60,178 nt of DNA, filler included, from Sphacelaria rigidula (GCA_964200075.2; 5 parts of 5 records of this genome joined end to end with filler, not necessarily neighbours in it); one strand, 5' to 3'; shown: positions 6,901 through 59,979, counted from the first letter of the whole stretch. Translations and numbers: made by a program. Notes: generated by a model not told the origin, from the letters alone.

Positions 6901-7550
6901 AGTGTCTTATCATGTTTTATCAAGTTTTTCTGTTGATCTCGGAAAAGCTCGAAGACTGTTTTGACTCATGTGGGAAGTTGCTCTTAGCCTGGTCGGGAGT
7001 CGAACTGGGGGCACGGAAAGTCGGGAGTGTGCGCCTGATTCTCTCTTAAGAGTGCAGCAAGTCTTGCAGAGGTGACACAATTTTGGCCTGTGCTTCCCAC
7101 AGTAGTCAGCCTCAAAGCGTGAAAATACGCATACTATTGAGAGGTTCCGTTTCGAAGGTCAAAAAGGCGGTCCCAGAGCATAGGGCGGTCGTCATTATCG
7201 TTTGGGGCCAACGATGGTATTTGTTCGATTTACGAATCGAATGCCAAGCGACCAATGCGAAAGAGACCAAGATACAGTATGCTCTAGTACTTCGGGAAAA
7301 ATACCATGAGCAGCAGGAGCAGAACATACCATACACATTAGCTTCCGCGTAACCGTACAACCACGGCGGAGCGCGCCGTGCGCTGTGATGATTGATTGCT
7401 TTGGCAATTTCATTATTCGCACACACAGGCACATCTAGTGCGGCCTACTGGTGACAACTGAGGAATGACTCGACAAAAATGAGGATATTCCAGATATTTC
7501 AGTCCTTCGCTTGATTGCCCTAGAAGGTGGTGTACGTATGTGTGTGTGTG

Positions 7551-7599
<49 letters not shown>

Positions 7600-10500
7600 C
7601 TGCTGATACCGAAACCAGAACATCGTTCCATGCGACGAGACTAGTCCCGTCATCTTCTAAGAGTTTCGGCTAAATGAAATAGTGGGGGGAGCCTCCAAAG
7701 TTACGCACGAGATTTCCAGGCCCTTACTTGTTGATGTACAATCCTCGGCCCTTCACTCGATGTTTGAGATCTAATAGCTGAATCACGGGAGCGGTAAATT
7801 TCCCATTCGAAGGCCTTCATTACCTTGGCCTCGTCGCATTTCTTCTGAAGGTATGAACAGATTTGAATTTTGAAAAGCATACAAAAGAGCCAACGGCCGC
7901 TCCTCATTACATTGAAAGGCATAACTTGGACAGATGCCTTTCTGATCCCTCCACGATGTTTTTCACCCGAGATAGGGACTCTGCGGATTCCGCCACCTCG
8001 AAATGGCTTGCCCCACTATCCGACAGGACTTTGACACAATTTTGCGTTTTTTAATACATGCAGCTTGACCTTGGAGCTGATTCATGAGTTTCCATACCAC
8101 TCGAAACCAAAATAGGCGGAATGGTACTAACGTAATTGCAGTGTTTGTCCAAGAAATTGCAAGTCTGGTCAAAAATCAATCTGCGGTAACCGGGAAACGT
8201 GGAGGTGCCCCAGAACCATCTCAGAGAGTGTAGGCGTTACTTGCAAGGTATAAGAATCAGCCTGACCCAAAACGACGCGGAAGGGCCGAAAAGGCACTTT
8301 TCCGACAGATTTATATGGGGCCGTGAAAAGCGACCCAGTTGACGAAAAAGAGAAGAAGAATGAAAACCTTCAACAAAGTAATGTTTTCAACAGTTGATAC
8401 GCTCGTGTCCCAAACAATATCAGGCTTCGACTCTCGAACGTCGAGTGACTGATCACCGGACATGATTATTGATGTCGTTCGTCGGAACCAGCTCGTACAT
8501 TCACTGAATCTGTGACGGTCGGTTGCCTATAAGTCGTCACAAATCCCAAAATATCTAGCATTTCACTCGCGCAGCGTTTGAGAAGTAACTTAAAAGAGTT
8601 GCATCAAGACGGTCTCACCTGCAGAGTCTCCGCGGACTTCAGCGCCCGCTGGCTCCGAAGTAGTTCCTCAGAGATGCGGTCCACCTTCTCCTCGATCTTG
8701 TGGCTGTGCTTCTTCTCCTACGGGCGCAAGGGGACGTAAGCAACAGAGTTCAGAGCTGGACTATCAGCTGCGATGGAAGGTGTCAATATCCCTCGAGCAA
8801 TTGTAGAGTTGAGGCACACTGAAATGACAACACCATGCTAGTTCCTATCATTTCTACATTCGCCGAGTTCCAAAGACGAAAAAGCAATTCATTCCCCACG
8901 CCGCAAAAGAAATATTATCTAGAAAGAAGGAGTAGTAACGTCGCACACTTCTAAGAGTGGTGGAGTAGAACACAGCGTATTATTCCACAGTAGAAGGCAA
9001 AAATTTCATCAAATTGGCTTCGGTACGTCATACTCAACACCGTGCGAGGCTCATGGAGATGACGTGCGGAATGCCAATCATGGGCCCCCTGAAAAACTCT
9101 GGGGGGTGACAGATGTGCGCTGCTGGGATTCTGCTCCCGAACCTCGCCCACTATGGTACCTTGATTGATTGATTAATTTGTGTTGATTGCCGCACTTAAA
9201 CTGACCCCCCAGGGATCCAGCCATGGTCACATGATAGACGTACCCGCGACAAAACAATACCGAGACGCTCGCTGAAAAAAGAATGAGAAACAGAAAAAGG
9301 TAGACTAAAAAAATCAGTCAATCAATAAATCAATGAATGAATAAATAAAGAAAAAGAGACGGCCGGTCTCTGCTCCAGGGCCCCGGCACTATTGGTGACA
9401 TTTGCTGCAAGGGGTAGTCGATACAACCCTGCGCCCGTATACGTCAACCGACCCACACTCTCAGCGCGGTCTCCCGCACAACGCAAGGTAGTGTGCCCAT
9501 CTTCGTCTCGATCCATTCCATACCCGAACATATATCCGCATCGCTCTGCGGGAACATTCATCCCGCCAAAAAGGCGCATACACTACGTTAGAGAGAGAGG
9601 AGCAGCACAGAGCTAAGTGCATGGTAAGGCGAGGGTCGTCCTGGAAAAAATGTTGCTTCCTCACGCACTGTTTTTCGGTGCATTACGGGTTCATGCAGTG
9701 CGGTACCTTTTCCACTTGCGCCCTCGTCCTGCCGTGAGACGTTCTCTCGGTTTCTAGCGCACTCAGAGCGTTATCCAGGCTCTCTTCCAGCTCCTCTCGC
9801 CTTCAGCACAGATCAAACCAATGGAGATGGTATCGACTCAGTGCGCATACGTTTCACATCAATTGCCGTGTATGTACTGCGTTGTGACACCCTCCCCAAG
9901 TGTCTGGAGAGAGCAATGTACCAGATTGGGCAAAGCACTCCTATCTCGGCGTGCGCATGGTGTCAGATCTTCACCTTTCGATCAAACGCGGAGTTCATAA
10001 TCGCTTTTTTGGCGAGGTTTTCATCATGTCTCGTGTTTATGTTGGGCGCAAACACATCACGAAACAATAATACCGCAGTGTGCCTCGCATGCCCGCTTCG
10101 AACCCAGTGCTTGCTGCGACATATTTCTGATTACCTCCCAAGTTTTCAGGTTGGATGGGGAAGATTTTAGTTGAGCATTTCAAGTAGCGGTCGGTTGATA
10201 CTCCTCTTAGATCGAGCATTTTTCCTGTGCACGTTAGATCACTTCCTCCAATGTTTCGAGCGTTTTGTTGAGTGATTGAGTACAAAGGGAACAATGATGT
10301 TGTGAGTTGGCAACACCTCCCCGCGCAACCTCTTGATTGCAGCATCCCGCTCATTCTCCGCCGCCCCTATCCTGCCGGCGAGTGCGTCGGCCCGATCTGC
10401 TTCAGCCTGCCACCGCCCGAGTTCAGCCGACATGCGCCTCTCGTGCACGTGTATTCGCGCCTGCAGCTCCCTGCTAAGCTCTTTCTGCTCCGCCTGTGAC

Positions 10501-11956: not shown

Positions 11957-12056
11957 NNNNNNNNNNNNNNNNNNNNNNNNNNNNNNNNNNNNNNNNNNNN
12001 TTAATTAATTAANNNNNNNNNNNNNNNNNNNNNNNNNNNNNNNNNNNNNNNNNNNN
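11957..12056. other. Artificial contig linker
   Basis: N44-TTAATTAATTAA-N44, stops in all six frames. Confidence 0.99.
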
Positions 12057-12790
12057 TCGAGAGACTCGCATCATCGATGTTACTAGCATGTACCCAATTT
12101 TCCATATATGTTGTCCCAGAACACCAAGAGCTGCGGAGAGATTTCGTCTCTTCATTTCTTGATGCGAAGATTGATTTCTGTCTACCTCTCTTTTTGGACA
12201 AGACGCACGTCTTTGCACTGAAGAACATGTTAAAAAACAGGGCAATGTTCCCGTCACCGCTACTACTGTACTGTCACACACATAACACAAGGGCGGTGCT
12301 GCGGCAATAACAGATCGATCCAATTTGAACTTGAGGGGTGTTGTTCACCCTTGATTCTCCCCAACCTCCCCCTCCCGCCACCGGGCGCTTGGCGACACGC
12401 CAGTTGGGGTGTGTGTGCGTGAGAGATCAAACACTTGTAGGGATCTTTTTGACATGCAAGACTGAAAAACGATAGCTATGGTGGTGACGTAACGGTTGCT
12501 AGCGTGGCGCATAGGCAATCTGCAGCACACATACGGTGGTCGCGTCGACAGCTCGGTACACCATGAGTACTTTCCCATAGGTAATAATTATTCCGATGTC
12601 AGGAGATCATGGATCATCACAACTCGAAGGGAGAGACGAGAGTGCTCTACGATCAACCGCATGTCGTTGCATTCGAGACCCACGCCATCAACCGCCGACA
12701 GCAAGGGTCTTGTTGCTTTCACGTGACGCTGTCGGCAGTACGCCAGGCAAACCGGATCATAGCTACCTCCCGTCTGCGCAGTGGTGGTCA
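12057..12790. repeat. Dispersed repeat, about 730 bp; reverse-complement homologue of 48702-49502
   Basis: gagactcgcatcatcgatgttactagcatgtaccc at ~12061 matches the reverse complement gagactggcatcatggatgttaccagcatgtaccc near 49465-49500; colinear similarity continues to ~12790/48702. Confidence 0.8.
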
Positions 12791-14364
12791 CGCTAACAGA
12801 CTGCACCGATTTCGGAAGACCTGAGAAAGCTAGAGAGTTTGGTTCTCATTAGCTACATGCACAAGATGAAAACGGTTGTGAAAACCTGAGGGAAGGTGCG
12901 CGGAATGTTATCTTCGGAATATCTCATTTCCACCGTCAGAAGCGCAAGAACATAACTGAACAAAACATAGTTGATCACATCGCATTTTACCACGCCACGC
13001 GTTCCAAACCCAGTCCATCTCCCGGCGGTGGTTTCAGATCATAATTTGTGCAATTGCTACAATACATCCTATGCATAAATCACGTACGACATCCATGCGA
13101 CCATGAAATGACACTATCACGGGTATTCATGCCATGCCCCCGCTATTGTACCCACGAAAATGATTCGTGGCTCCATCAATCGGCAAGAAGTGCTCCACAA
13201 AAACACCATGTACAACCAATCTAGCATCATCCGTGGTGGACATTCGTATATACTACTATTGACATCGTGCACATCGCTCGCATGATCACCTTCTTCCATC
13301 CACCACACGGACGTGCGAACAAATTGAAATTTGATCGGAACGATCAGCACACACACATCCCCACTACCATTGAGGCTTTTACAAAGGCGGAGTTCGAACG
13401 TACTTGGAAATGAAGGGGGGTGCACTCCCCCTACGTCACACACACAACCAATAACGGAAATGAGGATGCACTCGCTGTTGTGGATGTCATCCACAATGCC
13501 ATTGCGAACTTGCAACAAACGCAACGGTGCCGTCAATTTAGCCGCACCGCGTGATACAGTCACAAACCCGTACCTCTATTTACCACTAGCTCCCGGTTCA
13601 AGCTGCATAGCGTCATGAGATGGAACAGCACTCTTCGTTGTCAACAGTCGCTATGGTCTAATGCCGAACAAAAGAGTCGTGATAGTGTATCTTCCAGCAC
13701 GCGAACGTCTTGGAGGACTTTCAGCGCATCAGCGCATCGCCCCCGGCATACATATCGTATCATGCAGTCGTCCTTCCGGCTCCTGAACCCCATACGTCGT
13801 CTCCATTGTGCTCCATGGCCTATGTTTCACGACAGTTTTTCCACGCCGGTTTTGGCTCCTTCTTTGTAGCGTATCGTGACGGGGCGAGAGGGTGGGGCAG
13901 GAGGTGGGGGGTAGGGGGCAATAGCAAGTGAGGCATTTGTTGTGTGAGGTATGCTTGATAGTAGAGGATACGATTCCACAGCGGTGGGGACATGTGAAAG
14001 CGGAGATCAGGTGAGCAACGCGGCAGTGATTGGAGAAGAGCACGTGAGAAACAAAGACCGACAGTGACATCCGTCGTTTTCTGTCTTGCCTCTGTCGCGT
14101 GGCAAAAACACCAGCCGTCCCTTGCGAGAGTAGCCGTGAGTGATGCCACGGTAGGGATGCACTTTTCAGTCCGGACGTTTTCTGAGGCTGTTCACTAAGG
14201 CCCAGACATTTGTCATCGAGAGGCTCCAACAAAGAGCCCCAGAAAAAAAAGGTGCACCCTACAATACCACAGCCCTGCTCCCGCAAACCAGGAAACGGCT
14301 GAACTGAAGCTAGTCGCTACCGCACACAATCAAAACGCCCCATGCATACCAGAGTCAGACTTAC

Positions 14365-14583
14365 AGTCATCGCTCTCCTTATCGTCCTTGCTCTCCTTAT
14401 CGTCCTTGCTGTCCTTGTCGTCCTTGCTGTCCTTGTCGTCGTTATTCTTCTTGCCGCTCCCCCTCCTCTTGCCACCCCTCCTCTTGCAGCAGTCGCGCTT
14501 GTCGCAGTCACCGTCGCATGTGATATCACCACCGACATATTTCCACCCCTTGGGACAGCGGTAGTCGCGGCACTTCTCGTCCT
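14365..14583 (-). CDS. Last module exon: divergent six-Cys module plus K/R/G and DKDSK/DKESK tail
   Basis: CAG acceptor at 14584-14586; EDEKCRDYRCPKGWKYVGGDITCDGDCDKRDCCKRRGGKRRGSGKKNNDDKDSKDDKDSKDDKESKDDKESDD; GTAAGT donor at 14364, or an in-frame TGA shortly after if unspliced. Confidence 0.8.
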
Positions 14584-17500
14584 CTGCCGCGGCCAGACGG
14601 AATCACACGTACACCCGATGGGAGGACTTTCAATCTAGCAATGCTCCCGACTCAACAGTGTTTGCAACTAGTCTGCACTGTACAAACTCCCGACAACAGA
14701 TGTTACGTCCTGAGTCTAGCTTGTGGCGGCGCCAAACCCGGCCTGAGGGGTATTTAAACGGGGTCACGTGAATATCATGCTTGATTATATCGACGGCTTC
14801 TGCAGGCACTGGTTCTTCCAGACAGCTTGCCTTTCTCGCAGCATTCGCGCTTGTCGCACTTGCCGCGGCACTCCTTGTTACCGCGGTTCAGGAAGCCGCT
14901 GGGGCAGGTGAAGTTGTCCTTGCACGTCTTCACCTCTGCGACGGACACGGCAGGTAAAGCGCGAATGTGGTCGTCGCGTCAAGTAACAGCCTTACACTGC
15001 AGAGGAACAGGGCAAGCGGGAATTGAGTTTTATATTGTTTCACCTCTGCCTCAAGTGGAAACACCCAAACCGTGTTTATTCTTCATTTTCACTGGTAATA
15101 CCAGGCGCCCAAACATGCATGGCACGTGGTTGAACCGTTGTCCACGACATCTCTGGAGTTGTCAGTAGACCACGATGTGGCGGCGGGTTGCACGCTAGCG
15201 GCTTCAAATCTTGGATGTTTGGCTCAAGATACCTCAAGATATGAAATCGTGTAAAACATCATTCGCCGGACAGATGCATACATGTACATGTATATATATA
15301 TATATATACTGGCCCGATTTTTTTAAACGTCGGTCCTGAGATGTTTGATTTACGATGCGGTCCCCAAAGCTCGCCGTCCTCTCGCGCATTACAGGCTGGA
15401 GGAATCACATCCTCCATATACTCCTAGTGCTCCTCAGGTTGAAACGTTGAAATGTGTTGCTCAAACATTCGTTCACGTTGGTGACAGGCCGAGAACAGTC
15501 CGGGCGGGCCGAAATATGTCGTACTTCGCCCCTATTCTGGGCGGGATATCGACACAAATGGTTAATTTTGATTGTTCATCACCGGCAGCGTCGCGGCCTT
15601 TGCAGGAGTAAAGGACGACGGCTGCTCATTCCGATGTTTGAGAGGTCGAGCTCCCCGGTATCGTCGTCGGGTACGCAGGGCCAACCCCATAGCGCTCAGT
15701 AGGCGGGTCTAGAATTCCTTTTTTTTGCACCCTTGATTTTCCTGGCGCATGGTCAGCACCCTCTCCGCCGCCTTGGCGTAACGGCGGTCCATCGATACTC
15801 CGGCGTATCGATCACGACTTGGTGGGGTGTGCACCGAGACTCCATCGCGGTTGTGGTTGATAGTGATTCAACGTCGAGCATCTTACAAAAAGCGTCACGT
15901 AGGGTCCCCGCTCTTAGTTGCACGTGTTCCGTGAGTTCGACCCGAGCGACATCGCTGTCGCTGCACCCGACCTTTATTGGGAAAAACGAAAACTCAACAA
16001 GCCTTGAGTTTGGCCATTTTCGTCCTAGATATCGTCGGCATCAACGACTCTGTTATATTTTCGCTTTGAGTCTCTCCACTACTCCATATTTTCAACAAAC
16101 CGAACTTTCGCATTTTGGCCTCCTCCGTTAGGGAGGTACTCACAGGGCAGAGGAAGTATATCGTCGAAATCCACTCATGGTCTTTTAGGCCAGAGTGTGT
16201 TTGATGAGTCTCGAGATTGAGCGATGCGTCTGCACCGACGCGAGAGATGCACGAGTCGCCACGTCACGTACACACGGAGACGGGGCCCGAAGAAACCTCG
16301 ATCACAACTGCAGATTGTACGCCTTCAAGACACTCACCCTTCTCGCAACATTCACGTTGGTCGCACTTGCCGCGGCAATCCTTTTCACCGCGGTTCAGGA
16401 AGCCGCGGGGGCAGACGAAGTCATCCTTGCACGTCTTCACCTCTGCGGCGGACACGGCAGCCAACGTACGAGTTTCGTCGTCGCATTCGAGTAAAATGGC
16501 ATGCTACGCAGCATCTTCAATGATACGATGTTGATTGTTCCTCTTCACGGTGTACCGATACTGATCAGATTCACCTCATCACGCTATTTACTTCTACGCC
16601 ATTTTGTCACATGCAAAACCAGCACGTTGTACCGAGCTCTACTGTGCTCTAGACTAGAGTTATTGCTTCCTCCAAATACTTACCCTTCTCGCAGCATTCA
16701 CGTCTGTCACACTTGCCGCGGCACTCCTTATCACCGACGTTCAGGAATCCGCTGGGGCACGTAAAGTCGTCCTTGCATGTTTTCACCTCTGCGGAGGGCG
16801 TTGTAATGCGTGAGAGGACCGCGTGCTTAGAGGATCGCATCGGAATTAAAACACCCCTATGGTTAGGCTTAGGGGTAGGGTTAGGGCTAGTGTTGGGGTT
16901 GGGGTCAGGGGCGTGGTCCCTGCAGGGACTGGCCCGATTGTATTCGAACGAACGTCGATCCTGATGTGCTTTGGACCACGATGCGGTCCTCTAAGCACAC
17001 GGTTCTCTCACGCATTACAGCGTGGAAGCTTATGAATGAGTGTCGTCTTTGCATTCGGGCAACACACGACATGCTACGCAACACAAGGAGATGGTGTTGA
17101 TTAATCCACTTTTACCGTGACCCGATTTCATCTCTAAGAACACGGCAGCCGACGGATGGATGTCGCAATCGTGTTCGGGCAACAGTCAACATACATACTG
17201 TGCATGACTTTCAACTATAGGCGATGGATCGCAGTGAGTTGCGGAGTACCGATACGTTTGCCAGAGAGTATCGCACGTCATTATTGTTCCACACAACAGC
17301 TGCCGATCTTGTTGCACTTGCACCGCCCGAAGGGCTTACATCACCGTCACTGCAGCAAACGAGATCCTACGATAAGACAGGGAGCGTGACACAGTCTCAA
17401 CTCGTGGTGACGGACCTCCTGGTGGGTAAAAAGCATTGCAGAATGCATCGGAAGCGTGCGTCGCATGTTGATACCTAGAGCTTTCGCATGGATGTCTCTG

Positions 17501-20500
17501 GTTGCAGCGACGTAGTAACGAGCGACTGTACCGTCACGGTCATCGTGACCGTGAACGTTGATTGTCCTGGGTGTTGTTGCTTCTTATCTCAAGAACGTGT
17601 TGAGGCGATTGCCGAAATTTCAGACTTTCTCGTTCTTTTTATTTGTCGATAATGAAGGTCCTGACTCAAACTCCGTCATGTTTCGCACTACAGGCAGGTG
17701 TGATTGAGCTTGATGCGCTGTCGAACGCACCCAAAGCGAATGCCAGCCAAGCCTGCAGGCATTGCCTTCTCCAGGCACTCACCCTTTTCGCAACATTCAT
17801 CCTTGTCGCACTCATCACGGCACTCCTTGTCACCGAGGTTCAGGAAGCCGCTGGGGCACGTGTAGTCGTCCTTGCATGTTTTCACCTCTGCGCAGGACAC
17901 GGCAGCAGTGACGTGTTCTTTGAACGGCTTGCGGTAACTGGTTTGTCGCACGATGTATCAGTACGATTGTGACGGGCGATACGCACACGCTTCTTGGCTT
18001 GGGCGGCACCTGTTTGAGATGAGCTTGACTCTTCAACCGCCCGTGCGGATTGCTCTGACATTGCGGGCAACTCGAATCACTCTCTGAACGATGGCCATCA
18101 TGTTGGAAAAGCTCGAGTGGTGTGGCACTGTCTTTTGGGACAGACCGATTACTGCCGCACTGGACAGCAGTGTATGGCAAAGGTGCACAGTGGTCGGTAG
18201 ACACCCTTACTTCTGCAGCAAAAGATGAATACACGGTCTCTTTACAAAGCAAAGTTGAACGAAACGAAGGAAAGAAGCAGCATTGAGGACCGAGGTGACC
18301 GAGCCCAAGCATCCTCAATTCTGGAACGAAAAGCCAAGTCCGTACACGTACGAATATGAAACGGCACCACATGCTTCGTGTCTTCCTTGCATTGTCACAA
18401 GTTGTACCGCTATTTGCTGGAGAGCCGAAATCCAAAACATGGAACATACAGCCAGGCTACAGGAATTCCAAACACATCACGTGCTAGGACGGGAGCGCCG
18501 TGCTATGCCCCATTGTGACGGCTCACGTGCTGGCCACGGAGACTAATGCACGACTGTACACCAGAATAAGTTCAAAAAACAAATCCAACTTTTCAGCCAA
18601 CCTCTTCGATCGTATCGAAAGCGATTGTGCACTACAGCTGCAGGTATTTATTCCTCGTTCCAGACACTCACCCTTCTCGCAACATTCGCGCTTGTCGCAC
18701 TTGCCGCGGCACTCCTTGTTACCGCGGTTTAGGAAGCCGCTGGGGCAGGTGAAGTCATCCTTGCACGTCTTCACCTCTGCGACGGATGCGGCAGGTATCG
18801 AACGAGTGTGTTGTCACGGGTTTTGAGTAACAGCGACATATTTTCATGGATGTATGACAACTTGTGTTCCAATTTACTAGCAAAAAAGCTGAGGACAATG
18901 TTACACTCACGATGACCATCAATTGCCAGCTACAGAAGTTGCGGTGTGTACTAAGCTTACTGCACAGTCGGGCGTATCCAAAGCGAACACCGGCCAAGAC
19001 TGTATGTATTGCTTCCTCGAAGTACTCACCTTTCTCGCAACACTCGCGCTTGTCGCACTCGCCGCGGCACTCCTTGTCACCGACGTTCAGGAAGCCCCTG
19101 GGGCACGTGTAGTCGTCCTTGCACGTCTTCACCTCTGAGAATAAAATGGGAGGTAGCAAGAGAACGCCATCGTCGCGTCAAGTAACAGCCGCAAACTACG
19201 GAGGAACAGGCGAAGCAAGAATGAATCTTTTTCTTGCTTCACCTCTGCTTCTAGTGGGAACACGCAACACATGTTTTTTCTCATTGTTCACTGGTCATTA
19301 TAAAACGCGTACAAATCTGCATGACATATGATCATGGCAAAGTTACAGCGGGGCCCCAGGTAGTCTGGTAAAGCCTGGCTTTTTGTCGCCAAGTCGAGGT
19401 CGCGATCGGGACGAATGGGTCATCGGGATTAAGAGATACCTTGCACCGACGCAAGGGATGCACTACTCGCCATTCCACATCCGCAAAGAACGAATGATTC
19501 CCAGTTTTTCGTCCAACGTTTTCGGTTGCATTCAAATCAAATGTCGATTACGACAGCTGGCATCGGATCCTCCGAACACTCACCTTTCTCGCAACATTCG
19601 CGCTGGTCGCACTTGCCGCTACACTCCCTGTCGCCGCGGTTCAGATACCCGCGGGGGCAGGTGAAGTCGTCTTTGCATGTCTTCACCTCTGCGAAGAACA
19701 CGGCAGCCGACGGATGGATGTCACCATGGCGTTCGAGCTACAGTAACATATTGTGCATGAGTTCCACAGATGTACGGTGGATCGCTCCATTGTGCCTCTG
19801 TGCCGTGCACCGATACGTTCGACAGGGACTATCGCACGGCATTGTTGTTCCACGAGAGTACTGCCGTTGGTACTGCGCTTTAGCCCCCCCCGGGGTCTAC
19901 ACCACAGTCACAGCGTCAGACGCCTGATCCCACGGTTTGGCGGGGAGTTTTGCACGATCTCAATCCGTTATTTTGGTGTACCAGCAAAAACGCTCGGGAC
20001 AATCAACGGTTACACAGCCATGATGACAATAAACGACCTACAGAACCCGCAGTGAGTAGCGAGCGCCCTGTGCTGGCGTATCTATAGCGAAACCTTGCCA
20101 ATAGTTGGGGTATTGCGTTCACCATTTCCTCACCTTTCTCGCAACATTCGCGCTTGTCACATTCGTCGCGGCACTTCTTGTCACCGACGTTCAAAAAGCC
20201 GCTTGGGCACGTGTAGCCGTCCTTGCACGTCTTCACCTCTGCGGCGGACACGACGGTTATCACGAATATTATCTTGGCGTGAAGTATCAACTGTACACCA
20301 CGGGAGAAAAAGCCATGTCGGAGTAACGCTTCGTGTTGTTGTGCTTCTGATCTGTAGAGAACACCCAAAGGAATGTGCATACAGCCATGTTTTGATATAT
20401 AGTTCATAGCGGTATCGATGTTCAAGCCGAAGATCTCTGGCGATGCTCGGCTCTCCGTGTCCAAGTCAAGGTCGTGATCAGGGGGACTGATTCAAAGAGA

Positions 20501-23391
20501 ACACGGCTCCCGCAGTTGAGAATTGAAGTGTAGACCCGTTTACGCCGACCGCTCCGGAGGGCACGACTTTGAATCGAGAACCTGCAGTATATTGACTCCA
20601 TCGTGATCTAGAAATGCATGTCGGTATATATGTATATTTACTTCCTGTCCCACACGCGGGTTTCAACAAATGTCCGACTGTTCCGTGTTTCTCAGTTCGA
20701 AAGGTTTCCCTGTTTTCCTCACGCACGCCTTAACGTAGGCGAGGGGCCGAAATCAATATTGGGCCCCCGAAAATTGTCGTACTTCGCCCGATTCCGGGAG
20801 GAAAACGACACAACCGGCCCCTTCTACTTGTTGATCGTGAGCAGGACCGCGGCCGTTGTTGGAGTGAACAACGACGGCCGCTCAGTCCGATACTTGTATG
20901 GGAAGTCGAGCTCCCCGGTGTCGCCAATTTGAGATATGCATTTCTCCACCGTTTCGTCGGGTACTCGGGATCGATTGTGTAGCGCTCAGTGATCGTGCCT
21001 GGCATTCCGTGTGGCACCCTTGAGTTTCCTGGCGCAATGACCGGCGCTGTCTCCACCGCCATAGCGTATCGGCGGCCCATCGATACGCCGGCGCTCCGTT
21101 AGTAATTTTGGCAACAATACCTTCGTTTTATTTTTGCGGCGAGCACCTTCATGACTCCACATTTTCAACGAACCTATCTTCGATATGGTAACAACCTCCG
21201 CTCGGGGGGTACTGACGGAACAGAGGAAGTATCGCAATCTCCCATCTTCACTCATGGTCATTTTGCGCCAGAGTTAATGTTTGATGGATCTCGAGATTGA
21301 GCGATGCGCCGACACCGATGCAAGGGGTGTACGGGTTGCCATATCACTCACACAGCAGCGTACGGTGCAACCGATATCCTAGCCAACTTCTTCAATCGCA
21401 TTCCAATCTGACGTCAATCGCGACTGCAAATATCACTTCTTCAAGGCACTCACCTTTCTCACAACACTCGCGTTGGTCGCACTTTCCGCGGCACTCCTTG
21501 TCGCCGCGGTTCAGGAAGCCGCGGGGGCAGACGAAGTCATCCTTGCATATCTTCACCTCTGCATCACAAACGGTAGCCGATAGCTGAATGTCGTCGTGAC
21601 ATCCGAGCAAGAATTACATGCTATGCCAGACCTTCACAATGATGTGATGTTGACTGTTTCTCTTTCCGGTGTACCGATACGCGTCTCATGTCCTCCAACT
21701 GATCACGTTATTTACTCCACCACGCCGTTTCGGCACATGCATGACCTGCACGTTGTACCGAGCTCTACTGTCCCGTAGACTTTCTCATTCTCACTTCACA
21801 TGAAACTTGTAACAACTACGTGGGCCAGCTGCTTCGAACGTGTCAGTGCCGATGACAAACTTGGAGGTATTGTTTACCCTAGATACTCACCCTTCTCGCA
21901 ACATTCGCGCTTGTCGCACTTGCCGCTACACTCCTTGTCACCGAGGTTCAGGAAGCCGCTCGGGCAGGTGTAGTCGTCCTTGCATGTCTTCACCTCTGCG
22001 GCGGACACGGCAGCAGTGACATTTTTCAGATGACTTGCGGTAGCTGGTTTATGGCACGCGTGATCTGCAGTTTGCATAGAGCTTACTTCTTCGACCGCTC
22101 ATGCTGGATTACTCCGACTTCGCAGGCAACTCGACCCATTCTTCGATCGCCGGCGTGCTTCACCACACCGTGATGGCCAGCGTACTGGCTACGGTGACTA
22201 GTGCATGACAACTCGTGATGCGTGGCACTACAGCGTCGGCACAGCATTTTCAATGTATTTGTAGGGTGGCTGCGGCAGAAACACTCAAAGCGCGAAGTTC
22301 GCGTCCGGCCAGGGGCCAGGGCGGCGACAAGAGGGTCCCCGCTATCGTCATGGTCGTTGTGCTCCATGTAAACCTTCGAAATGATGGCGAACTATTCCGA
22401 AATGCTACCCAATCTATTCGACCGTATCCAACCCGATTGTACACTACAGCTATGCAGGTATCGCTCCTATCAGACACTCACCCTTTTCGCAGCATTCGCG
22501 CTGGTCGCACTTCCCACGGCACTCCTTTTCACCGAGGTTGAGGTAGCCGCGGGGGCACTTGAAGTCGTCCTTGCATGTCTCTTTCTCTGTAAGGGTCAGT
22601 TGACATCAATGAATCATCACACGCGTTGTTTCGTTTTGCCGAACCTTCCACAGACTGAAGTTCGGCCATTCACAACCACAATCGTGGTCGACGGCACAAA
22701 TGCGACTGCATTGTTGTACACGTCAGTTGGCGTGGGCGATACTTCTTCAACACGTCGTACCCCATCGACAACAGCGGGGCTACGTGTGCACTGTCTGTGC
22801 ACTGCAACTCTACGCAATACTTCCTGAAGACACTCACCCTTCTCGCAACATTCGCGCTTGTCGCACTTGCCGCGGCACTCCTTGTCACCGAGGTTCAGGA
22901 AGCCGCTGGGGCAGGTGAAGTCGTCCTTGCAAGTCTTCACCTCTGCGACGGACACGCCAACGGGTGGGTGTCGTCATCGCGCCGAAGCAACGTTCAAGGG
23001 TAATGGGCCACTTTAATCGCCGAGAATGCACCGGTGAAACTTAGGGTTCTTCACCTCGACACACTTATACGTCTACGCTCGCAGGCACTGGGATTGCCAT
23101 TTGGTGAAATCTTACCAATGCCATGTCATATTGCTCGTGTCGAACGTACTGCGCCATGTCCGCGGCCACCAACTTCTTGTCAACAGCGAAAACAATACTA
23201 CACCAGGTTTTCATACCACGTCTACATCAAGGGCAAATGATATCGACTACAGTCGAAGGTAGATATTGCTCCTTTCGGATACTCACCCTTCTCGCAACAT
23301 TCGCGCTGATCACACTTGCCGCTGCACTCCTTGTCACCCCGGTTGAGGTAGCCGTCAGGGCACTTGAAGTCGTCCTTGCACGTCTCTTTTT
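14365..23391 (-). CDS. Cysteine-rich tandem-module protein encoded by an array of 13 x 105-nt exons plus a divergent last module (5' end not found in contig)
   Basis: 13 exons, each bounded by CAG and GTRAG (one GC donor), all 105 nt, phase 1-1 and open in the same frame; consensus EVKTCKDDFTCPSGFLNRGDKECRGKCDKRECCEK. Spliced together they give at least 528 aa with 84 Cys. Confidence 0.9.
14831..14935 (-). CDS. Cys-module exon 13 of 13 (RGN loop)
   Basis: EVKTCKDNFTCPSGFLNRGNKECRGKCDKRECCEK; CAG acceptor; non-canonical GCAAGC donor. Confidence 0.8.
15308..15394. mobile_element. Partial (right-half) copy of the MITE at 16799-17022
   Basis: actggcccgatt...cgatgcggtcc...cgcattacag matches 16928-17020; preceded by a (TA)n run. 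Confidence 0.7.
16338..16442 (-). CDS. Cys-module exon 12 (RGE loop)
   Basis: EVKTCKDDFVCPRGFLNRGEKDCRGKCDQRECCEK; CAG/GTGAGT. Confidence 0.9.
16684..16788 (-). CDS. Cys-module exon 11 (VGD loop)
   Basis: EVKTCKDDFTCPSGFLNVGDKECRGKCDRRECCEK; CAG/GTAAGT. Confidence 0.85.
16799..17022. mobile_element. MITE with ~43-bp imperfect TIRs and an internal telomere-like G-rich tract
   Basis: Left cgttgtaatgcgtgagaggaccgcgtgcttagaggatcgcatcg is the near reverse complement of right cgatgcggtcctctaagcacacggttctctcacgcattacagcg; internal ggttaggcttaggggtagggttaggg. Confidence 0.85.
17783..17887 (-). CDS. Cys-module exon 10 (LGD loop)
   Basis: EVKTCKDDYTCPSGFLNLGDKECRDECDKDECCEK; CAG/GTGAGT. Confidence 0.9.
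18672..18776 (-). CDS. Cys-module exon 9 (RGN loop)
   Basis: EVKTCKDDFTCPSGFLNRGNKECRGKCDKRECCEK; CAG/GTGAGT. Confidence 0.9.
19030..19134 (-). CDS. Cys-module exon 8 (VGD loop)
   Basis: EVKTCKDDYTCPRGFLNVGDKECRGECDKRECCEK; CAG/GTGAGT. Confidence 0.9.
19584..19688 (-). CDS. Cys-module exon 7 (RGD loop)
   Basis: EVKTCKDDFTCPRGYLNRGDRECSGKCDQRECCEK; CAG/GTGAGT. Confidence 0.9.
20134..20238 (-). CDS. Cys-module exon 6 (VGD loop)
   Basis: EVKTCKDGYTCPSGFLNVGDKKCRDECDKRECCEK; CAG/GTGAGG. Confidence 0.9.
21454..21558 (-). CDS. Cys-module exon 5 (RGD loop)
   Basis: EVKICKDDFVCPRGFLNRGDKECRGKCDQRECCEK; CAG/GTGAGT. Confidence 0.9.
21891..21995 (-). CDS. Cys-module exon 4 (LGD loop)
   Basis: EVKTCKDDYTCPSGFLNLGDKECSGKCDKRECCEK; CAG/GTGAGT. 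Confidence 0.9.
22482..22586 (-). CDS. Cys-module exon 3 (LGE loop, EKET-type start)
   Basis: EKETCKDDFKCPRGYLNLGEKECRGKCDQRECCEK; CAG/GTGAGT. Confidence 0.9.
22838..22942 (-). CDS. Cys-module exon 2 (LGD loop)
   Basis: EVKTCKDDFTCPSGFLNLGDKECRGKCDKRECCEK; CAG/GTGAGT. Confidence 0.9.
23287..23391 (-). CDS. Cys-module exon 1 in this contig (RGD loop, KET-type start)
   Basis: xKETCKDDFKCPDGYLNRGDKECSGKCDQRECCEK; CAG/GTGAGT. Confidence 0.9.
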
Positions 23392-24012
23392 CTGTGACGA
23401 CCAAATAAGCGACATCAAATGAATCACGTCGGGAGAACAAGAAAGGGTTGGCGGGAGAGAGTGGGTTCCGGTTTGCAGATCTGTACACATCACCTGATTC
23501 CAGCGCGGATTCGCCAACAACTCGAGTCTAGTACGAATTCCACTCAAGCACAGCACGGTCAGATAGAAGCATCATGCGCGGAAGCGTTCGCGGGTCGAAT
23601 ACAAAATGTGTTTACTGGCACTGAACTTGTCCCATCTCTCCACCAACGGCCTCGTCTAAACGTTCCCAGGTGACATATACTCCCTCCAAAAAAGCGCGAC
23701 ACAAAAGAGGGTTGATCCCGGGGGAGATTCCACTCAACTTATCCTCACGTCCGCCTGGGTGGCTGAACAAAATTCAAAGCGGTACAAAACTCTGCAAGGG
23801 CCAGCGGGTGGCAAGACACCCCTCGGTCGGAGTCTCTGCTCTTGTGTAACCCAGGACATTTTATGTGATGGAAAAGGGGGACCGTTTTTTCAGAGGAACA
23901 CTCTATCCTATCAAAATCGCGGATCCGCCCACCAAGAGTATGGACATCGCCTTTTCAAAACGTTGCACGTAAATGTAAACAGCGGAAGAGTGATCCTACG
24001 ATAGGGGCGTAT

Positions 24013-24112
24013 NNNNNNNNNNNNNNNNNNNNNNNNNNNNNNNNNNNNNNNNNNNNTTAATTAATTAANNNNNNNNNNNNNNNNNNNNNNNNNNNNNNNN
24101 NNNNNNNNNNNN
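24013..24112. other. Artificial contig linker
   Basis: N44-TTAATTAATTAA-N44. Confidence 0.99.
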
Positions 24113-24769
24113 GCTTCTAACGTTGTAGTTAGATCGTTATCCGTAAATTGTTGTCATGTTGACATCAACTGTGCTTTCCTTCATCCACAGTCCTTCACAT
24201 TTCCGGCTCCGATGTGGTTCTCAATTCAACTCGAGACGTGAGTCTACATGAACTGAAGACCTTGGATTTCAAGATTTTAATCGAACGGCTTTCGATCGTC
24301 GCTCTTTCGTGCAGCTTTCAAGCAACCGCAACAACGTTGCACCCGTTTACACGACAGGTGTTCATCTACACGCCACAAACTTCTCCCACCAAATCTGTCC
24401 TCCTTCTTTCCAACATCACCGTCACTCTTCGTAACATTTCTCACCAGTCTCAACGTCATGAGACTACAGTACACCGAAGGACGAGGGGGCCGTAGGCCCC
24501 CGCGTCCGAAGCCCTTGTATATATATAAATATTGCCACACGAATAGGTGTTGTGACTGTTCGTTTCCGTCGTGTATTGTGCGTCCAATATATATTGGACA
24601 CATTGACGAACTCCGATATGTTGCCTGAAACGTTGTAGCGTGGACTTCTTGAGCCCGGGATCCAAACAATCCACATTCCCCCTTGCTGTTGGCTGCCTGC
24701 TGAGCGCACAAAATTGAAGATTGGTATACAGGCCCCACACGTGGGCTGAAGACTAGGTGCATCGCACGT

Positions 24770-26336
24770 ATGGCTGCCGGCACGGTGCAACTACAGGAGA
24801 CGTGGCGGTATCAGGGATGGCTAGCCTCAGCAGAAGGTGTCGCTGATGGTGCTGTGGATTCCGCTGGGAACCTGATTTTAGCGGGGTTTGGCAATTGGGC
24901 AACTGTTGATTTGGACGATGACACATTTGTAAGCGAACAATCGGGAGACTTCCAAGCGGTCAAACTGTCTGGCTTGACGGGTGCCGAGCTATGGACATGG
25001 AGCGATAGCTCTGCCCTTTCAGCTGTGGATGCAATCCATGCGGCGACCGTAGATAGCGAAGACAATGTCGTACTGGGTGGGTTTACAGAGGGGGATTGGG
25101 ACGGCGTTAACTCGAACGAAAAAAGAGATATGGCTGTGGTCAAGCTCGACGGGGACACGGGCGACGAAATCTGGACGTATCAGGATGCTGCCGACGACTT
25201 GGAGAGCTCCTCTGGGTACCTGTGGTACGGTAGTACGACTGTATGGGGAGTGGCCGTAGATGCCGACGACAACATTTTTGTTTTCGGGGATACGACCAAC
25301 GACTTGGTCCCCGGCGAGGGTGCCGCAAATGATTTCGACTGGTTTGTCAGAAAGCTGGACGGGGCGACTGCAGCCGTGCTCTGGACTGTGCAAGGAGGGT
25401 CTTCGGTTCTCCGAGACATTACCCGCGGAATAAAGGTGGATCCTGCCGGTGACGTGGTGACTGTGGGCTATACCGGGGATGACTATTTAGCCATTACGGT
25501 GAAGAAACTCAGGGGGGAGGACGGGGAGATTATTTGGGAGTTTGACCGATTTTCGTTCTCATCTGACATCCTAAACAGTGTTGATGTGGATGCCGACGGG
25601 AACGTGTACGTAGCTGGGGGTGCGGGTGCAGAAAACTTGCAGGGACACATCGCGGAACATCCAACCGTGTTGAAAATCGATGGTCAAACTGGAGCCGAGA
25701 TCTGGTACTACTCGGGGGCGTCCGCCTTTCCAGGAAGATCGGTTTTCAGTGCCGTAGCAGTTGACCCCGTAACGGGTTACGTCGTGGGCGCCGGTCGACT
25801 GGAGGGGATATTAGCATATGATATGGTCGCCGTTGTGCTCGACGGCCAGACCGGGGACGAACTATTGACATATCAGGATGGCACCATCTATACTGATACG
25901 GCTACGTTCGCCGGATTTGACCTACAAGGGCATCTGTTCTTCGGGGGCAACACTTATGGACAGTGGACTGAAGCTGCGGGAAGCCAGGATTTTCTCGCGG
26001 TCAAGTTCGAGACGCTGGAGAACTCCGAGACGCCGTCTCCCACAGTGAAGGCAACGCCCAGCCCTACTGCTCCTATTCCGTCTCCTGCTGTGTCCCCGAC
26101 CCGTAGTTTGTTTACCTTGCCTCCGTCGGGAAATGAAGACGGTCCTATTCCGCTGCTCACGCCGACTCCCACAGTGCAAGGAAGAGCCAGCCCTATTGCC
26201 CTTTCACGTGCTCCTGTTACATCCCCGACCCTGACACCTGCTTCTGACGATGACTCTGTGGTTCTCGAGACTTGGGAAATTGGCTCTATCGCGGGTGGTG
26301 GCGGTCTTTTCATCCTCCTGGCTCTTTTGGGGCTAT
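24770..26336 (+). CDS. Large exon of a predicted type I membrane protein: ~7-bladed PQQ-like/SBBP-like beta-propeller, Pro/Thr/Ser stalk, transmembrane helix
   Basis: 535-aa ORF with repeated D..GN....G and VKLDG.TG.E.W motifs (six copies plus FLAVKF), then PSPTVKATPSPTAP..., then IGSIAGGGGLFILLALLGL. GTGAGT donor at 26337; possible acceptor ctacag ending at 24796, so the true N- and C-termini may lie in other exons. Confidence 0.85.
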
Positions 26337-26392
26337 GTGAGTGTCGCGCGCTTACATGGGCATCCTGTATTGTGTAGTATATATTAATAACA

Positions 26393-36068: not shown

Positions 36069-36168
36069 NNNNNNNNNNNNNNNNNNNNNNNNNNNNNNNN
36101 NNNNNNNNNNNNTTAATTAATTAANNNNNNNNNNNNNNNNNNNNNNNNNNNNNNNNNNNNNNNNNNNN
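36069..36168. other. Artificial contig linker
   Basis: N44-TTAATTAATTAA-N44. Confidence 0.99.
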
Positions 36169-38740: not shown

Positions 38741-41700
38741 CTAGGTCAAATCGTCTAAAAAATCAAACAAATCACCGTCGTCGGAGTCTTGTCTAATCTT
38801 CCCATCCTGCGGATCTCTCCCACCAGATAGCTCGTCGAGTGAAAATTCTCCATCTGATGGTGCAGGTCTAAATGATACGCTTATGTCCGACCGTTGGAGT
38901 TCCTTTGACTGTGCTGTAGGTAATTGATGGTGGGTGATATTCCCTACCCGTACTCGTGTTTCTGGAAGCTGCTCTTGGTCATCCTTGGCAACATCATGTA
39001 GGTCGATGAGCTGGTCGTCCGACAACTCATAGTCCAGGATCTCTGGGTCATTCACCGAGTGCCCATCAAATACTATGCTGTCGCTTCGCGTTTCTTCCTT
39101 GCCTGAATGCCCTTCAAGCAAAGAACCCCAAACTGACTCACTGTCGGATAGGTCGACGGAATATATGTTTACCTCCGAAGCTTCGTCGGGCACCTCGTGT
39201 AATTGATCGCTCTGCTCCTCGCTGTCACCCACTGGCTCGTCCAGCGATAGCTCGTCGAACGATGTCTTGTCCACAAAACGTCCATCGACTTTGTTCTTGT
39301 CGTCAAGTTGCACCTGCTCTCTTCCTGCCCGACTATCGATCGATGCTTCCCCGATCGTAACCTGCCCCACAAACTCCTCGGCCACCGATCGGATTTCGTC
39401 TAACGACTCCGCAGCGAGCAAGCTGTGCTCCGGCTGGTTCTCGTCGAAGTTGAAGTCATCTGCGGAATACCCATCGAGCGATTTGTCCATCTCCGGAGCT
39501 GCACCGAGTGTTTTCCCACCCTGACGTCGAAATTCCAGCTGTTGTTCGTCATCTGGATGCTGCTTGTCGAGCGACCGCTCGTCGAACGACCCTTTGTCCA
39601 GGGACGGTTCACGCATGCCGTTTTCTGCGTCAAACTGCACTCTCTCCCTGTCTGACCGGGTGTTAATCGATCCTCCCCCGAGCGGGATCTGCCCCACGAA
39701 CTCTTCAGCCACCGGTCGGATTTCGTCCAACGACTCTGCGACGAGCGAGCTGTGTTCCGGTTGGTCTTCGTCGAAGTTGAAGTCATCTGCGGAATACTGA
39801 TCCAGCGATTTGTACACCTCCGGAGCTGTACCAAGTGTTTTCCCATCCTGACCTTGAAATTCTGGGTGTTGTTCGTCATCTGGATGCTGTTTGTCGAGCG
39901 ACCGCTCGTCGAACGACCCTTTGTCCAGGGACGGTTCATTCATGCCATTTCCGGTGTCAAACTGCACTCTCTCCCTGTCTGACCGGGTGTTTATCGATCC
40001 TCCCCCGAGCGGGATCTGCCCTACAAACTCCTCGGCCACCGATCGGATTTCGTCCAACGACTCTGCGGCGAGCAGACTGTGTTTCCGTTGGTCCTCGTTG
40101 CAGTCATCTGCGGAATACTGATCCAGCGATCTACCCACCTCCGGGGCTGCACCGAGTGTTTTCTCATCCTGACCTTGAAATTCCAGCTGTTGTTCGTCAT
40201 CTGGATGCTGCTTGTCGAGCGACCGCTCGTCGAACGACCCTTTGTCCAGGGACGGTTCATGCATGCCATTTCCGGTGTCAAACTGCACTCTCTCCTGGTC
40301 TGACCGGGTGTTTATCGATCCTCCCCCGAGCGGGATCTGCCCCACGAACTCTTCAGCCACCGGTCGGATTTCGTCCAACGACTCTGCGGCGAGCAGACTA
40401 TGTTTCCGCTGGTCCTCGTCAAGGTTGAAGTCATCGTCGGAGTAGACTCGACGTGGACTGCCGTCATCGAAACCGCTGTCACGGACTCGATGTTGGCTTG
40501 TCCGTGCTTGGCCCTTTCTCAAAGATTTATCACGTTGTGTTTCTTCATGCATTTGAACTTCTGACTGCCTGTTGTCATCACACATATTTTCGTTGAGCGA
40601 CAGCTCGTCGAAAGACCCTTTGCGAGCAGACGTGTCCTCCATCCCATTTTTACCGAATATGATCCGCTCCCCCTTTGTTGCACCATCGATCGATCTCCAT
40701 CCAAATGAGGTCTGTCCCACCACGTCCTCCGCCATCGGCCGGATTTCACCGCAGGGTTCGACATTCAGTGACCCTGCGGTAGGTAAACTGTCCTCCGGTT
40801 GGTGGTCGTCGAAATGAAGGCCACGCGAGGAGTTGACATCGCGCGAGTCCTTATCGCCCACATCTTCCTGCCGAACTGTGGGCGCTTTGCCAAGGTTTTC
40901 TCGGGGCAGGGGTCTCTCGTCGAATTGACATCTTTCGTGGGTGTGAGGTCTTGCATCGAGGGCCTTCTCACTTAGTCGCGATGGTGAATCGTTGGTCGAT
41001 ATCTCATAAGCTGTCCGATTGTCTGCGGAGTTTTTGCAAACACTTGAGGGGCGGATGGCGAGTTGATCCGTGGGTATTCGGGAAATGGTTGGGTTGCCAG
41101 AAGCGGCAACTTTCCCGATAGACGGCTCTCGACTCAACTCGTCTACCAATATTTCGTCAAAAAAGCCTTCGCCGGATCCTGCCGTGTGCACACTACCAGT
41201 TTCAAGCTCGTGCGCTGTCGCGGATGCAGTGCCCGTTGAGCCACACTTGCCGTTGCCCGCTGTGACAACATTAGGCTCATCATTCGTGACAGTGATTCGC
41301 GTAGCGTCTACATCGCTGGATATTGCATCTCCGACGTCGTGTCTATCGACCCTAACCTTCAATACGTTTCGACGGGTGTCGTTCATGTCGAGCACCCCAG
41401 GACCGTGTGGGGCTTCCGCCGAACCTGTGCTGCTAACGAGGCTCATCCAGGACTTTCGCGACGAACTTGCGAAAGTGCTTTGAGTTTTATTGCTCTTTCC
41501 ACCAACTGTACCCGTGCGGCTGCTGCTTGAAGACGACAGCGCCATGTCAAACAGAGAAGACTCGCGGTCGGATGACCACGTGGCGGAAGATTTCCCGGCC
41601 CCTCGTAGATCTGAACATATCGCTGGCCGAGCACTTTGGGGCCTCGATTTTCGCCCGGAGGGCGGGCGAGACACGGGCACAACACGCTTCTCTGCTTCTG

Positions 41701-43413: not shown

Positions 43414-43894
43414 CTGCCGTGAGCGGAAAATGTGGGAGCATAGGAAAACACAGAAGCGCATGGCCGGTCGATTGCAGTGTTCAGCAGGCTTGAAAGCGAC
43501 AGGAGGGGCTCTTCAACAGGTAGCTGCGAAGAGTGCGTAGCGCGGTACGTGGGCTGAGGCTGCGGCGAGCCGGGAGAGAAGACGTTCAGGCACACGTGAA
43601 TGACAATGTCCCTCGACACCATTTCATCCGGCTTCCGCGCACTCTGTGGGATACCATTGAGCGAACGATGCCGGGTACCACAGTTCTGTGAGAAAGTTAC
43701 GATTTTGCCATGTTACATGTTCAGCACGCCCATGGTCCACAACCGATTTTGAAAAGCATATAACGGCGCTGAACTGTCGGCGGGGCCGTATTGCACTCCG
43801 ACCTATTTGCTCTCCTTGAAATATCTCGGAATCCGTGAGGGGGCAATTCAGCAAGCCATGTACTCAATGCTAAAAATATTCACAACGTCTCTAC

Positions 43895-48124: not shown

Positions 48125-48224
48125 NNNNNNNNNNNNNNNNNNNNNNNNNNNNNNNNNNNNNNNNNNNNTTAATTAATTAANNNNNNNNNNNNNNNNNNNN
48201 NNNNNNNNNNNNNNNNNNNNNNNN
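48125..48224. other. Artificial contig linker
   Basis: N44-TTAATTAATTAA-N44. Confidence 0.99.
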
Positions 48225-59745: not shown

Positions 59746-59979
59746 CAACGAGCATGACTCGTGTGCTCGAGTCAATCATTTTTCTTCACAACGAGCAATG
59801 ACTCATTTGCTCGAGTCATTCGCTTTTTCAACAACGAGCAATGACTCGTGTGCTCGAGTCACTCAATTTTTTCACAACGAGCAATGACTCGTGTGCTCGA
59901 GTCATTCATTTTGTCATCATGAACCAATGACTCGTGTGCTCGAGTCATTCGTTTTCCACAACGAGCAATGACTCGAGTC
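59746..59979. repeat. Tandem array of ~42-bp units with a palindromic core
   Basis: About 5.5 copies of caacgagcaATGACTCGtgtgctCGAGTCATtcatttttca. Confidence 0.9.

Follow-up and report, generated by a model that had tools for sequence, protein, structure and literature searches.

The 60,178-base stretch of Sphacelaria rigidula DNA analysed here (the window, from whose start all coordinates are counted) carries on its minus strand an array of short cysteine-rich exons, each of which codes for one six-cysteine module. A six-frame scan of the window with the pattern C-x5-C-x11-C-x3-C-x4-CC revealed exactly 13 matches, all on the minus strand between 14838 and 23380, and a relaxed six-cysteine pattern added just two more, namely a terminal module at 14486-14572 and an artefact of a (TG)n tract at 7541-7603. 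All 13 modules are encoded in exons of exactly 105 nucleotides (nt), coding for 35 residues each. The locus is the 3′ part of a transcribed and spliced minus-strand brown-algal gene, extending from the first module exon to the 3′ untranslated region (3′UTR), and both the gene and its array are almost certainly real.

The 13 module exons share the same borders (...cag/AG at the start and ...AA[AG]G/gt at the end, the slash marking the splice site) and are all in phase 1-1, the first two bases of the exon completing a codon and its last base opening the next one. All of them are open and every splice site is intact, with 12 GT donors and one GC donor after the module exons (the latter at intron 13, where the use of GC is presumed) and AG at all acceptors. 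The 13 introns downstream of the module exons measure between 241 and 1402 nt. The array ends in a last coding exon (14365-14583) that carries a divergent 14th module, C-x5-C-x12-C-x3-C-x4-CC, with one extra loop residue and the residues CP-K-G-W, followed by a basic K/R cluster and then about four 18-nt repeats coding for K/D/S/E hexapeptides. Intron 14 (13862-14364) lies 3′ of this exon and splits the TGA stop codon, the T being at 14365 and the GA at 13861-13860. The repeated modules belong to two subtypes, A (CP-[RD]-G ... CDQ) and B (CPSG ... CD[KR]), and the resulting features, with the contig joints described further below, are as follows:

Module exon 1, 23287..23391, minus strand: 105 nt, phase 1-1, subtype A (CP-D-G...CDQ), one residue off the complete module of the S. 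rigidula gene model P0011.
Module exon 2, 22838..22942, minus strand: subtype B (CPSG...CDK).
Module exon 3, 22482..22586, minus strand: subtype A, pairing with exon 1 in the tree (support 99/96).
Module exon 4, 21891..21995, minus strand: subtype B.
Module exon 5, 21454..21558, minus strand: subtype A, with a contig joint ending exactly at 21454.
Module exon 6, 20134..20238, minus strand: subtype B, with a contig joint ending exactly at 20134.
Module exon 7, 19584..19688, minus strand: subtype A.
Module exon 8, 19030..19134, minus strand: mixed residues R12/K28, within subtype B in the tree.
Module exon 9, 18672..18776, minus strand: subtype B.
Module exon 10, 17783..17887, minus strand: subtype B.
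Module exon 11, 16684..16788, minus strand: subtype B.
Module exon 12, 16338..16442, minus strand: subtype A, 90% identical to exon 5, with a contig joint starting exactly at 16442.
Module exon 13, 14831..14935, minus strand: subtype B, followed by the presumed GC-AG intron, with a contig joint starting exactly at 14935.
Last coding exon, 14365..14583, minus strand: module 14, K/R cluster and hexapeptide repeats, its 3′ border given by spliced contigs.
Last intron, 13862..14364, minus strand: GT..AG, spanned by the TGA stop, with joint 13861→14365 in runs X1, X2 and X3.
3′ untranslated exon, 12717..13861, minus strand: extent as covered by contigs of 1292, 1289 and 1222 letters with 1, 1 and 0 mismatches.

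An earlier note on this DNA had described 13 stop-free 105-nt exons in phase 1-1 with this cysteine spacing, which the six-frame scan and the border analysis confirmed. The borders it had given were correct as well, module exon 1 starting at 23391 and the last coding exon finishing, according to spliced contigs, at 14365, while the strand, which it had left unstated, is the minus strand. Its statement that no two modules are identical in protein also held, all 13 module sequences being distinct at both the protein and the nucleotide level, as did its description of introns of about 250-1400 nt that are far more diverged than the exons: pairwise identity among the exons averages 84% (73-95%), whereas BLASTN similarity at E<=1e-5 was found for 7 of 78 intron pairs and was patchy (66-80%). 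An R-G-D tripeptide occurs in 3 of the 13 modules (23287-23391, 21454-21558 and 19584-19688) at the variable residue 17 (R/L/V), and is probably incidental.

Transcription of the locus was examined in contigs of runs X1, X2 and X3, which are taken as RNA by inference rather than by record, in comparison with DNA run X5; altogether, four runs were assigned to RNA in this way, with a word share close to that expected from exons alone. Contigs were mapped at a 90% threshold, so that transcripts of paralogues map to the locus too. In each of X1, X2 and X3, a single contig (1222-1292 letters, 0-1 mismatches) was found to cover the region from 12717, 12719 or 12785 to 13861 and to resume at 14365, thereby skipping the 503 bases of the last intron, the ends of which are GT..AG on the minus strand (CT..AC on the plus strand). 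The shorter side of this 13861→14365 joint measures 145-147 letters in the three runs, and the joint was present in 0 contigs of DNA run X5, where contigs instead run colinearly through the introns. Moreover, low-depth contigs without any mismatch read through intron 13, which fits pre-mRNA of this locus. Transcription of this locus and removal of its last intron are thereby shown.

Contigs of X1 and X2 also contain a joint 13848→14403 with 21 other letters, at a depth above that of this locus's own contig; they seem to stem from a closely related paralogue, at whose 3′ end the stop context differs slightly. Just past the 3′ end of the gene, 12057-12854 is a very high-copy repeat, with a summed DNA-contig depth of about 5e5, many variant letters and loose ends.

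Contigs of module exons were abundant in X1, X2 and X3, contig depths being sums over all mapped contigs and therefore unsuited to ranking expression. Among the joints observed (15 listed of 156), 14935→21454 and 16442→20134 fall exactly on predicted exon borders and have CT..AC ends on the plus strand. Module exons of this family are spliced to one another at the predicted sites, and the gene proposed in the earlier note is thereby borne out by spliced transcripts, both in the last-intron contigs of the three RNA-like runs and in the family joints at predicted borders. Because the module-exon contigs are short and the exon ends almost identical, these joints are not assignable to particular exons or to an order of exons.

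The history of the array can be read from its introns and subtypes. Similarity was found between introns 11 and 4, and between intron 12 and introns 5 and 7, which makes the block of exons 4-5-6 the counterpart of exons 11-12-13. The array therefore grew through duplication, both tandem and segmental, of blocks of several exons with their introns. Covariation of residues 12 and 28 is seen in 12 of the 13 modules (Fisher p 0.005), and in the tree subtype B forms a clade (support 81/87), exons 1 and 3 pair at 99/96, and exons 5 and 12 pair at 90/87. Along the gene, the subtypes follow the order A B A B A B A B B B B A B, followed by the terminal module, and hence alternate through most of the array; a B-then-A junction occurs in S. 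rigidula P0011 too. As a separate observation on the introns, introns 12 and 10 share an element of about 99 nt that is 75% identical (15308-15400 and 16928-17026), and 78 DNA contigs terminate at 16940, suggesting that a dispersed repeat or miniature inverted-repeat transposable element has inserted into introns. Intron 10 also contains a degenerate telomere-like tract of TTAGGG-like units (16860-16910), where the summed depth of the DNA run reaches about 1.8e5 versus about 50 in unique intron bins.

Comparison of the 78 exon pairs yielded a nonsynonymous divergence (dN) of 0.104, a synonymous divergence (dS) of 0.824 and a dN/dS ratio of 0.126, with 0 of 78 pairs above 1, suggesting that the copies are old and conserved, and neither recent nor diversifying. 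Half of the codon positions (17 of 34), including those of the six cysteines, one proline and two glycines, are invariant across all 13 copies, and the substitutions among modules are conservative (F/Y, D/E/N, K/R/Q). Judged from these sequence comparisons, the module copies are held by purifying selection.

A profile search of 1,835,955,588 protein representatives returned 16 matches at E<=1e-3 (an earlier word-indexed profile search had returned 10 proteins), consisting of two S. rigidula models, 11 unnamed single-exon open reading frames (ORFs), one terminal-module ORF, protein P0017 and one weak match. The two named matches are P0011 and P0005 (E = 7e-20 and 4.6e-51, respectively, P0005 itself being included in the profile), both of them partial Sphacelaria rigidula models. 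In P0011, the end of one module reads directly into a complete module with one residue different from window exon 1. P0005, whose modules likewise follow one another directly, spans two and a half of them, among these the terminal module known from the window, and also has a basic stretch. Both are spliced gene models that attest the module family independently of the window, and their partial nature indicates that current annotation captures the gene poorly. The 11 single-exon ORFs stem mostly from ENA contigs and retain intron-derived flanks, and each of them differs from every window exon. In P0016, a terminal-module exon, the K/R cluster is longer, and the combination of the terminal module (CP-K-G-W, extra loop residue) and a K/R cluster was found in the window (14365-14583), P0005 and P0016. 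The family signature of about 35 residues, C-x5-C-P-x-G ... C-x3-C-D-x3-CC, was found head to tail in all 13 window modules, P0011 and P0005, and the length of the second loop varies among relatives between 11, 12 and 14 residues.

The only sign of the module beyond this algal lineage is P0017, a marine metatranscriptome protein with three modules that belong to the same class of six-cysteine spacing and have the form C-x4/5-C-P-x-G ... C-x3-C-D-E-H-x-CC (E 1.7e-4), for which a word search found no further relatives. P0018, a protein of 439 residues with a four-cysteine repeat, was rejected as a relative, as its overlap spans just 15 columns at an hhalign probability of 70%. The module searches matched no Ectocarpus or other annotated brown-algal protein, and scans of metagenome contigs and viral contigs with the module profile revealed no relative.

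A Pfam hmmscan at E<=10 with three modules, the terminal exon, P0005, P0011, P0016 and P0017 gave nothing at or above the cutoffs, and EGF-like, LDL-receptor class A (LDLa) and other named cysteine-rich extracellular Pfam families were absent from the resulting list. The match to Shisa_N (PF13908) was rejected at 13.9-14.9 bits (E 0.03-0.06) versus a cutoff of 22 bits, and the remaining Pfam matches are unrelated noise. Among PDB sequences, the best match was the granulin-like domain 1fwo, to which the first hairpin, C-x5-C-P-x-G, aligns over 11 residues with a non-significant E of 1.5. Granulin itself was rejected, since the module has one CC versus a twelve-cysteine ladder with four CC pairs and no Pfam Granulin match was obtained; a metallothionein-like identity was likewise rejected, as the module lacks CxC and CxxC, has conserved F/Y at two positions and has no Pfam match.

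When modelled with AlphaFold2 from a 31-row alignment, one module reached a mean predicted local distance difference test score (pLDDT) of 84.9, with two short helices and a small bridge, and is thus predicted to form a foldable unit, whereas P0005 folded alone gave a poor model (pLDDT 54.9). The module model had 0 matches in Foldseek against the PDB and 0 among 48,161 chains at Z>=2 in VIA; at 33 residues it is probably too small for these scores, so that this null does not show a new fold. The ESM Atlas gave a best feature score of 0.77 (P0005) with a structural template-modelling score of at most 0.40, and no usable match for P0018. The accessible text of the literature on brown-algal genomes, life cycle and transcriptome atlas does not describe the module, although supplementary tables could list the family as an orthogroup. 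In agreement with the earlier note, in which it was not recognised as a named domain, the module has no match in Pfam, PDB sequences, Foldseek, VIA or the ESM Atlas, and it is very probably an unnamed, lineage-restricted domain.

The layout of the gene has well-known counterparts. Animal EGF-like and LDLa arrays consist of six-cysteine modules of 35-40 residues, one per symmetric phase-1 exon, and have grown by exon duplication. The array described here resembles them in module size, in its six cysteines, in having one module per class 1-1 exon and in forming a long tandem array, but differs in its cysteine spacing (5/11/3/4/0, ending in CC), in having neither a Pfam match at E<=10 nor a fold match, in lineage, and in that its secretion is a prediction. 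In Ectocarpus, the accessible parts of two studies describe ROCO-LRR and NB-ARC-TPR genes with one repeat per fixed-length exon, of 72 nt for LRR and 126 nt for TPR (PMC3341825; PMC11378527), and in the first of these the LRR exons are reported to be under positive selection (Zambounis et al. 2012, PMC3341825). These genes are likewise brown-algal and keep each repeat in a separate fixed-length exon, permitting gain, loss and shuffling without a frameshift; in contrast, theirs are cytoplasmic repeats under positive selection, whereas the exons here are 105-nt, cysteine-rich and have a dN/dS of 0.13. The array belongs to none of EGF/LDLa, ROCO-LRR and NB-ARC-TPR: the hidden Markov model tests fail, the cysteine spacing differs, and selection is opposite to that on the LRR exons.

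The EsV-1-7 motif of brown algae and phaeoviruses (IMM family), C-x4-C-x16-C-x2-H, contains a histidine. According to the accessible part of the Phaeoexplorer preprint, EsV-1-7 is a short cysteine-rich repeat that has been amplified in brown algae and that animals and plants lack. The present module is also a short, amplified, cysteine-rich repeat of brown algae, but EsV-1-7 is a proposed zinc finger with histidine, while the module has no histidine, no Pfam match and no viral-contig relative; identity with the EsV-1-7 domain was rejected on the lack of histidine in the 527-residue product and of a Pfam match at E<=10. The granulin-like domain 1fwo resembles the module in its first hairpin but differs in its paired-CC ladder, which is absent here. 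The barnacle protein cp20k is described, in the accessible text of its report, as a secreted underwater adhesive with repeated cysteine domains, about 14-17% cysteine and abundant charged residues (PMC3661472). Its likeness to the present product (15.9% cysteine, 49% charged) is one of composition only, as there is no sequence relation and cp20k is a histidine-rich animal protein with 4-6 degenerate repeats and a signal peptide. What is new here is the undescribed lineage-restricted domain, the gene-building scheme itself being familiar.

The conceptual product has at least 527 residues and consists of the 13 tandem 35-residue modules, the divergent module 14, the K/R cluster and a K/D-rich hexapeptide tail. 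Asp, Glu, Lys and Arg make up the charged share, the net charge is -2, and Ala, His and Met are absent from all 527 residues. That the six cysteines of a module form three disulfides in a compact mini-domain is inferred from their even, invariant number, the adjacency of the last two, the variable length of the second loop, the conserved Pro-x-Gly and aromatic positions and the lack of CxxC or histidine. The class 1-1 layout of module exons typifies animal extracellular modules. By analogy, these class 1-1 exons, together with the even invariant cysteines, the second loop of 11, 12 or 14 residues, the conserved CP-x-G and aromatic residues and the cp20k-like composition, point to an extracellular location. 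The product would then be a secreted, very highly charged bead-string protein of the cell wall or an adhesive matrix, in which the basic C-terminal cluster would hold the protein on anionic wall polysaccharides (alginate, sulfated fucans). A conserved six-cysteine module array coding for a proposed secreted wall or adhesive protein is the best overall explanation, although we consider it about as probable as not, and our confidence in an extracellular structural or adhesive role falls slightly short of even.

A number of points weigh against this explanation. A search on the minus strand of 23392-24800 (88 bases of which are N) for ATG combined with a hydrophobic stretch and a phase-1 donor yielded neither a convincing 5′ exon nor a start codon or signal peptide, and the locus could be 5′-truncated. 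None of the X1-X3 contigs lies on 23628-24012, the sequence preceding exon 1 does not resemble the introns of the array, and the models of all relatives are N-terminally partial. In addition, joints other than that of the last intron have 20-33 letters on their shorter side and lie on near-identical exon ends, and therefore support splicing of the exon family rather than of this locus specifically. The product contains just one N-glycosylation sequon in 527 residues, its 49% of charged residues and its K/R cluster would suit a nuclear or a metal-binding protein as well, and the disulfide pairing is not readable from the AlphaFold2 model.

Some of these points bear directly on other explanations. 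The product could be an intracellular metal-binding protein, either an array of zinc modules or a metallothionein-like buffer, with the K/R cluster as nuclear localisation signal. The failure to find a signal peptide in 23392-24800, the high cysteine and charge content with almost no glycosylation sequons, and the K/R cluster that follows the last module here, in P0005 and in P0016 would all agree with this, as would the fact that brown algae own another cysteine-rich repeat proposed as a zinc finger, EsV-1-7 (Phaeoexplorer preprint, accessible part). However, neither CxxC nor CxC knuckles nor any histidine occur in the 527 residues, the 5/11/3/4/0 spacing has a second loop that varies among relatives (11, 12, 14), the conserved Pro, Gly and aromatic core with adjacent CC is typical of disulfide mini-domains, and no Pfam zinc-finger or metallothionein match appeared even at E<=10, which leaves this explanation improbable. 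With a similarly small probability, the locus could be a 5′-truncated copy of a multi-copy family, most of the module-exon RNA signal then coming from paralogues. No 5′ exon was found in the roughly 1.4 kb upstream, before the divergent gene at 24770 on the plus strand, contigs extending to 23391 read on into the end of a further module exon that the window does not have upstream, and the 3′ end of a close paralogue (joint 13848→14403, 21 other letters) is present in the RNA-like runs. Yet all 13 exons are open with intact splice sites, a locus-specific contig of 3′UTR and terminal exon was recovered with 0-1 mismatches in three runs, the zero-mismatch contigs through intron 13 fit pre-mRNA from this locus, and a 5′ exon could sit in masked bases or further upstream.

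Less probable still are two explanations that concern the use made of the modules. As a polyprotein precursor, the product would be cleaved between modules to free 35-residue disulfide-rich peptides, for example a defence peptide or protease inhibitor, much as plants have multi-repeat inhibitor or peptide precursors with short charged linkers. Fourteen near-identical modules under purifying selection, abundant module-exon contigs in the RNA-like runs and inter-module linkers (from the last cysteine to the next first cysteine) of just six, charged residues would suit such a precursor, but no dibasic or otherwise recognisable cleavage site lies in these linkers, the repeated modules have K/R pairs only inside the cysteine framework, no similarity to inhibitor or defensin families was found (Pfam, PDB sequences, Foldseek, VIA), and no signal peptide is known. 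The earlier note had instead favoured a combinatorial, variable-length disulfide-rich or metal-binding protein, possibly one for recognition or adhesion. On this explanation, frame-neutral skipping, duplication or shuffling of the symmetric exons would yield isoforms or alleles in large number, along the lines proposed for ROCO-LRR and NB-ARC-TPR genes of Ectocarpus. Its description of one module per symmetric exon is exact: any subset of the thirteen 105-nt, phase 1-1 exons stays in frame, all 13 modules differ, and exons were clearly gained by block duplication. Furthermore, among the joints listed, the terminal exon is joined to the non-adjacent exon 1, 2, 3, 8 or 11. Since these joints have only 20-33 letters on near-identical ends, and one listed joint even runs backwards (22587→18679), they are most simply mis-assigned or paralogue-derived unitigs. 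The generation of diversity was not supported by the selection test, with a dN/dS of 0.126, 0 of 78 pairs above 1 and conservative substitutions, in contrast to the Ectocarpus LRR exons, for which positive selection is reported in the accessible text (PMC3341825). There is accordingly little to be expected of either explanation.

The proposed secreted wall or adhesive protein can also be extended to a broader and rather unlikely scenario. The module would in that case be a brown-algal- or Sphacelariales-specific building block of matrix or adhesive, the class 1-1 logic having been invented independently in a third complex multicellular lineage, and skipping of exons without a frameshift, together with polymorphism in exon number, would set the array length, so that a family of bead-string proteins of varying length would be made in abundance.

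Outside the array, the window contains several further features. Beyond the N blocks at 24013-24112 and in divergent orientation, 24770-26374 (plus strand) is a single ORF for a PQQ-like or SBBP-type beta-propeller repeat protein with a Pro/Ser/Thr-rich stalk and a C-terminal hydrophobic segment. This protein shares 83% identity with an S. rigidula protein and about 45% with Ectocarpus proteins, a pattern that assigns the window to a brown alga near Sphacelaria; a Pfam scan at E<=0.01 was empty, whereas precomputed Pfam lists PF13360 for the copy in the window. A 1579-residue open frame at 38741-43480 (minus strand) is of low complexity, acidic and Ser-rich, has no Pfam match, and includes 3.4 copies of a 327-nt (109-residue) tandem repeat (39339-40435). 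The window further holds a (TG)29 microsatellite (7539-7596), a 43-nt tandem repeat of 5.6 copies (59744-59983) and, about every 12,056 bases, N blocks of paired 44-base units (11957-12056, 24013-24112, 36069-36168 and 48125-48224), the pair at 24013-24112 falling in a stretch that may contain the 5′ exon of the array gene. No RNA gene came up when the window was scanned with Rfam and for tRNAs.

Complex multicellularity and a polysaccharide-rich wall arose in brown algae separately from animals and plants, and only a small number of brown-algal wall or adhesive proteins are known. The gene described here adds an undescribed cysteine-rich domain, with spliced transcripts in many contigs of three RNA-like runs, and its one module per symmetric phase-1 exon and block duplication mirror the assembly of animal extracellular proteins. 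If intracellular, the product would represent a new type of metal- or redox-active repeat; if extracellular, it would be a candidate structural or adhesive component of the wall and an example of convergent gene-building logic.

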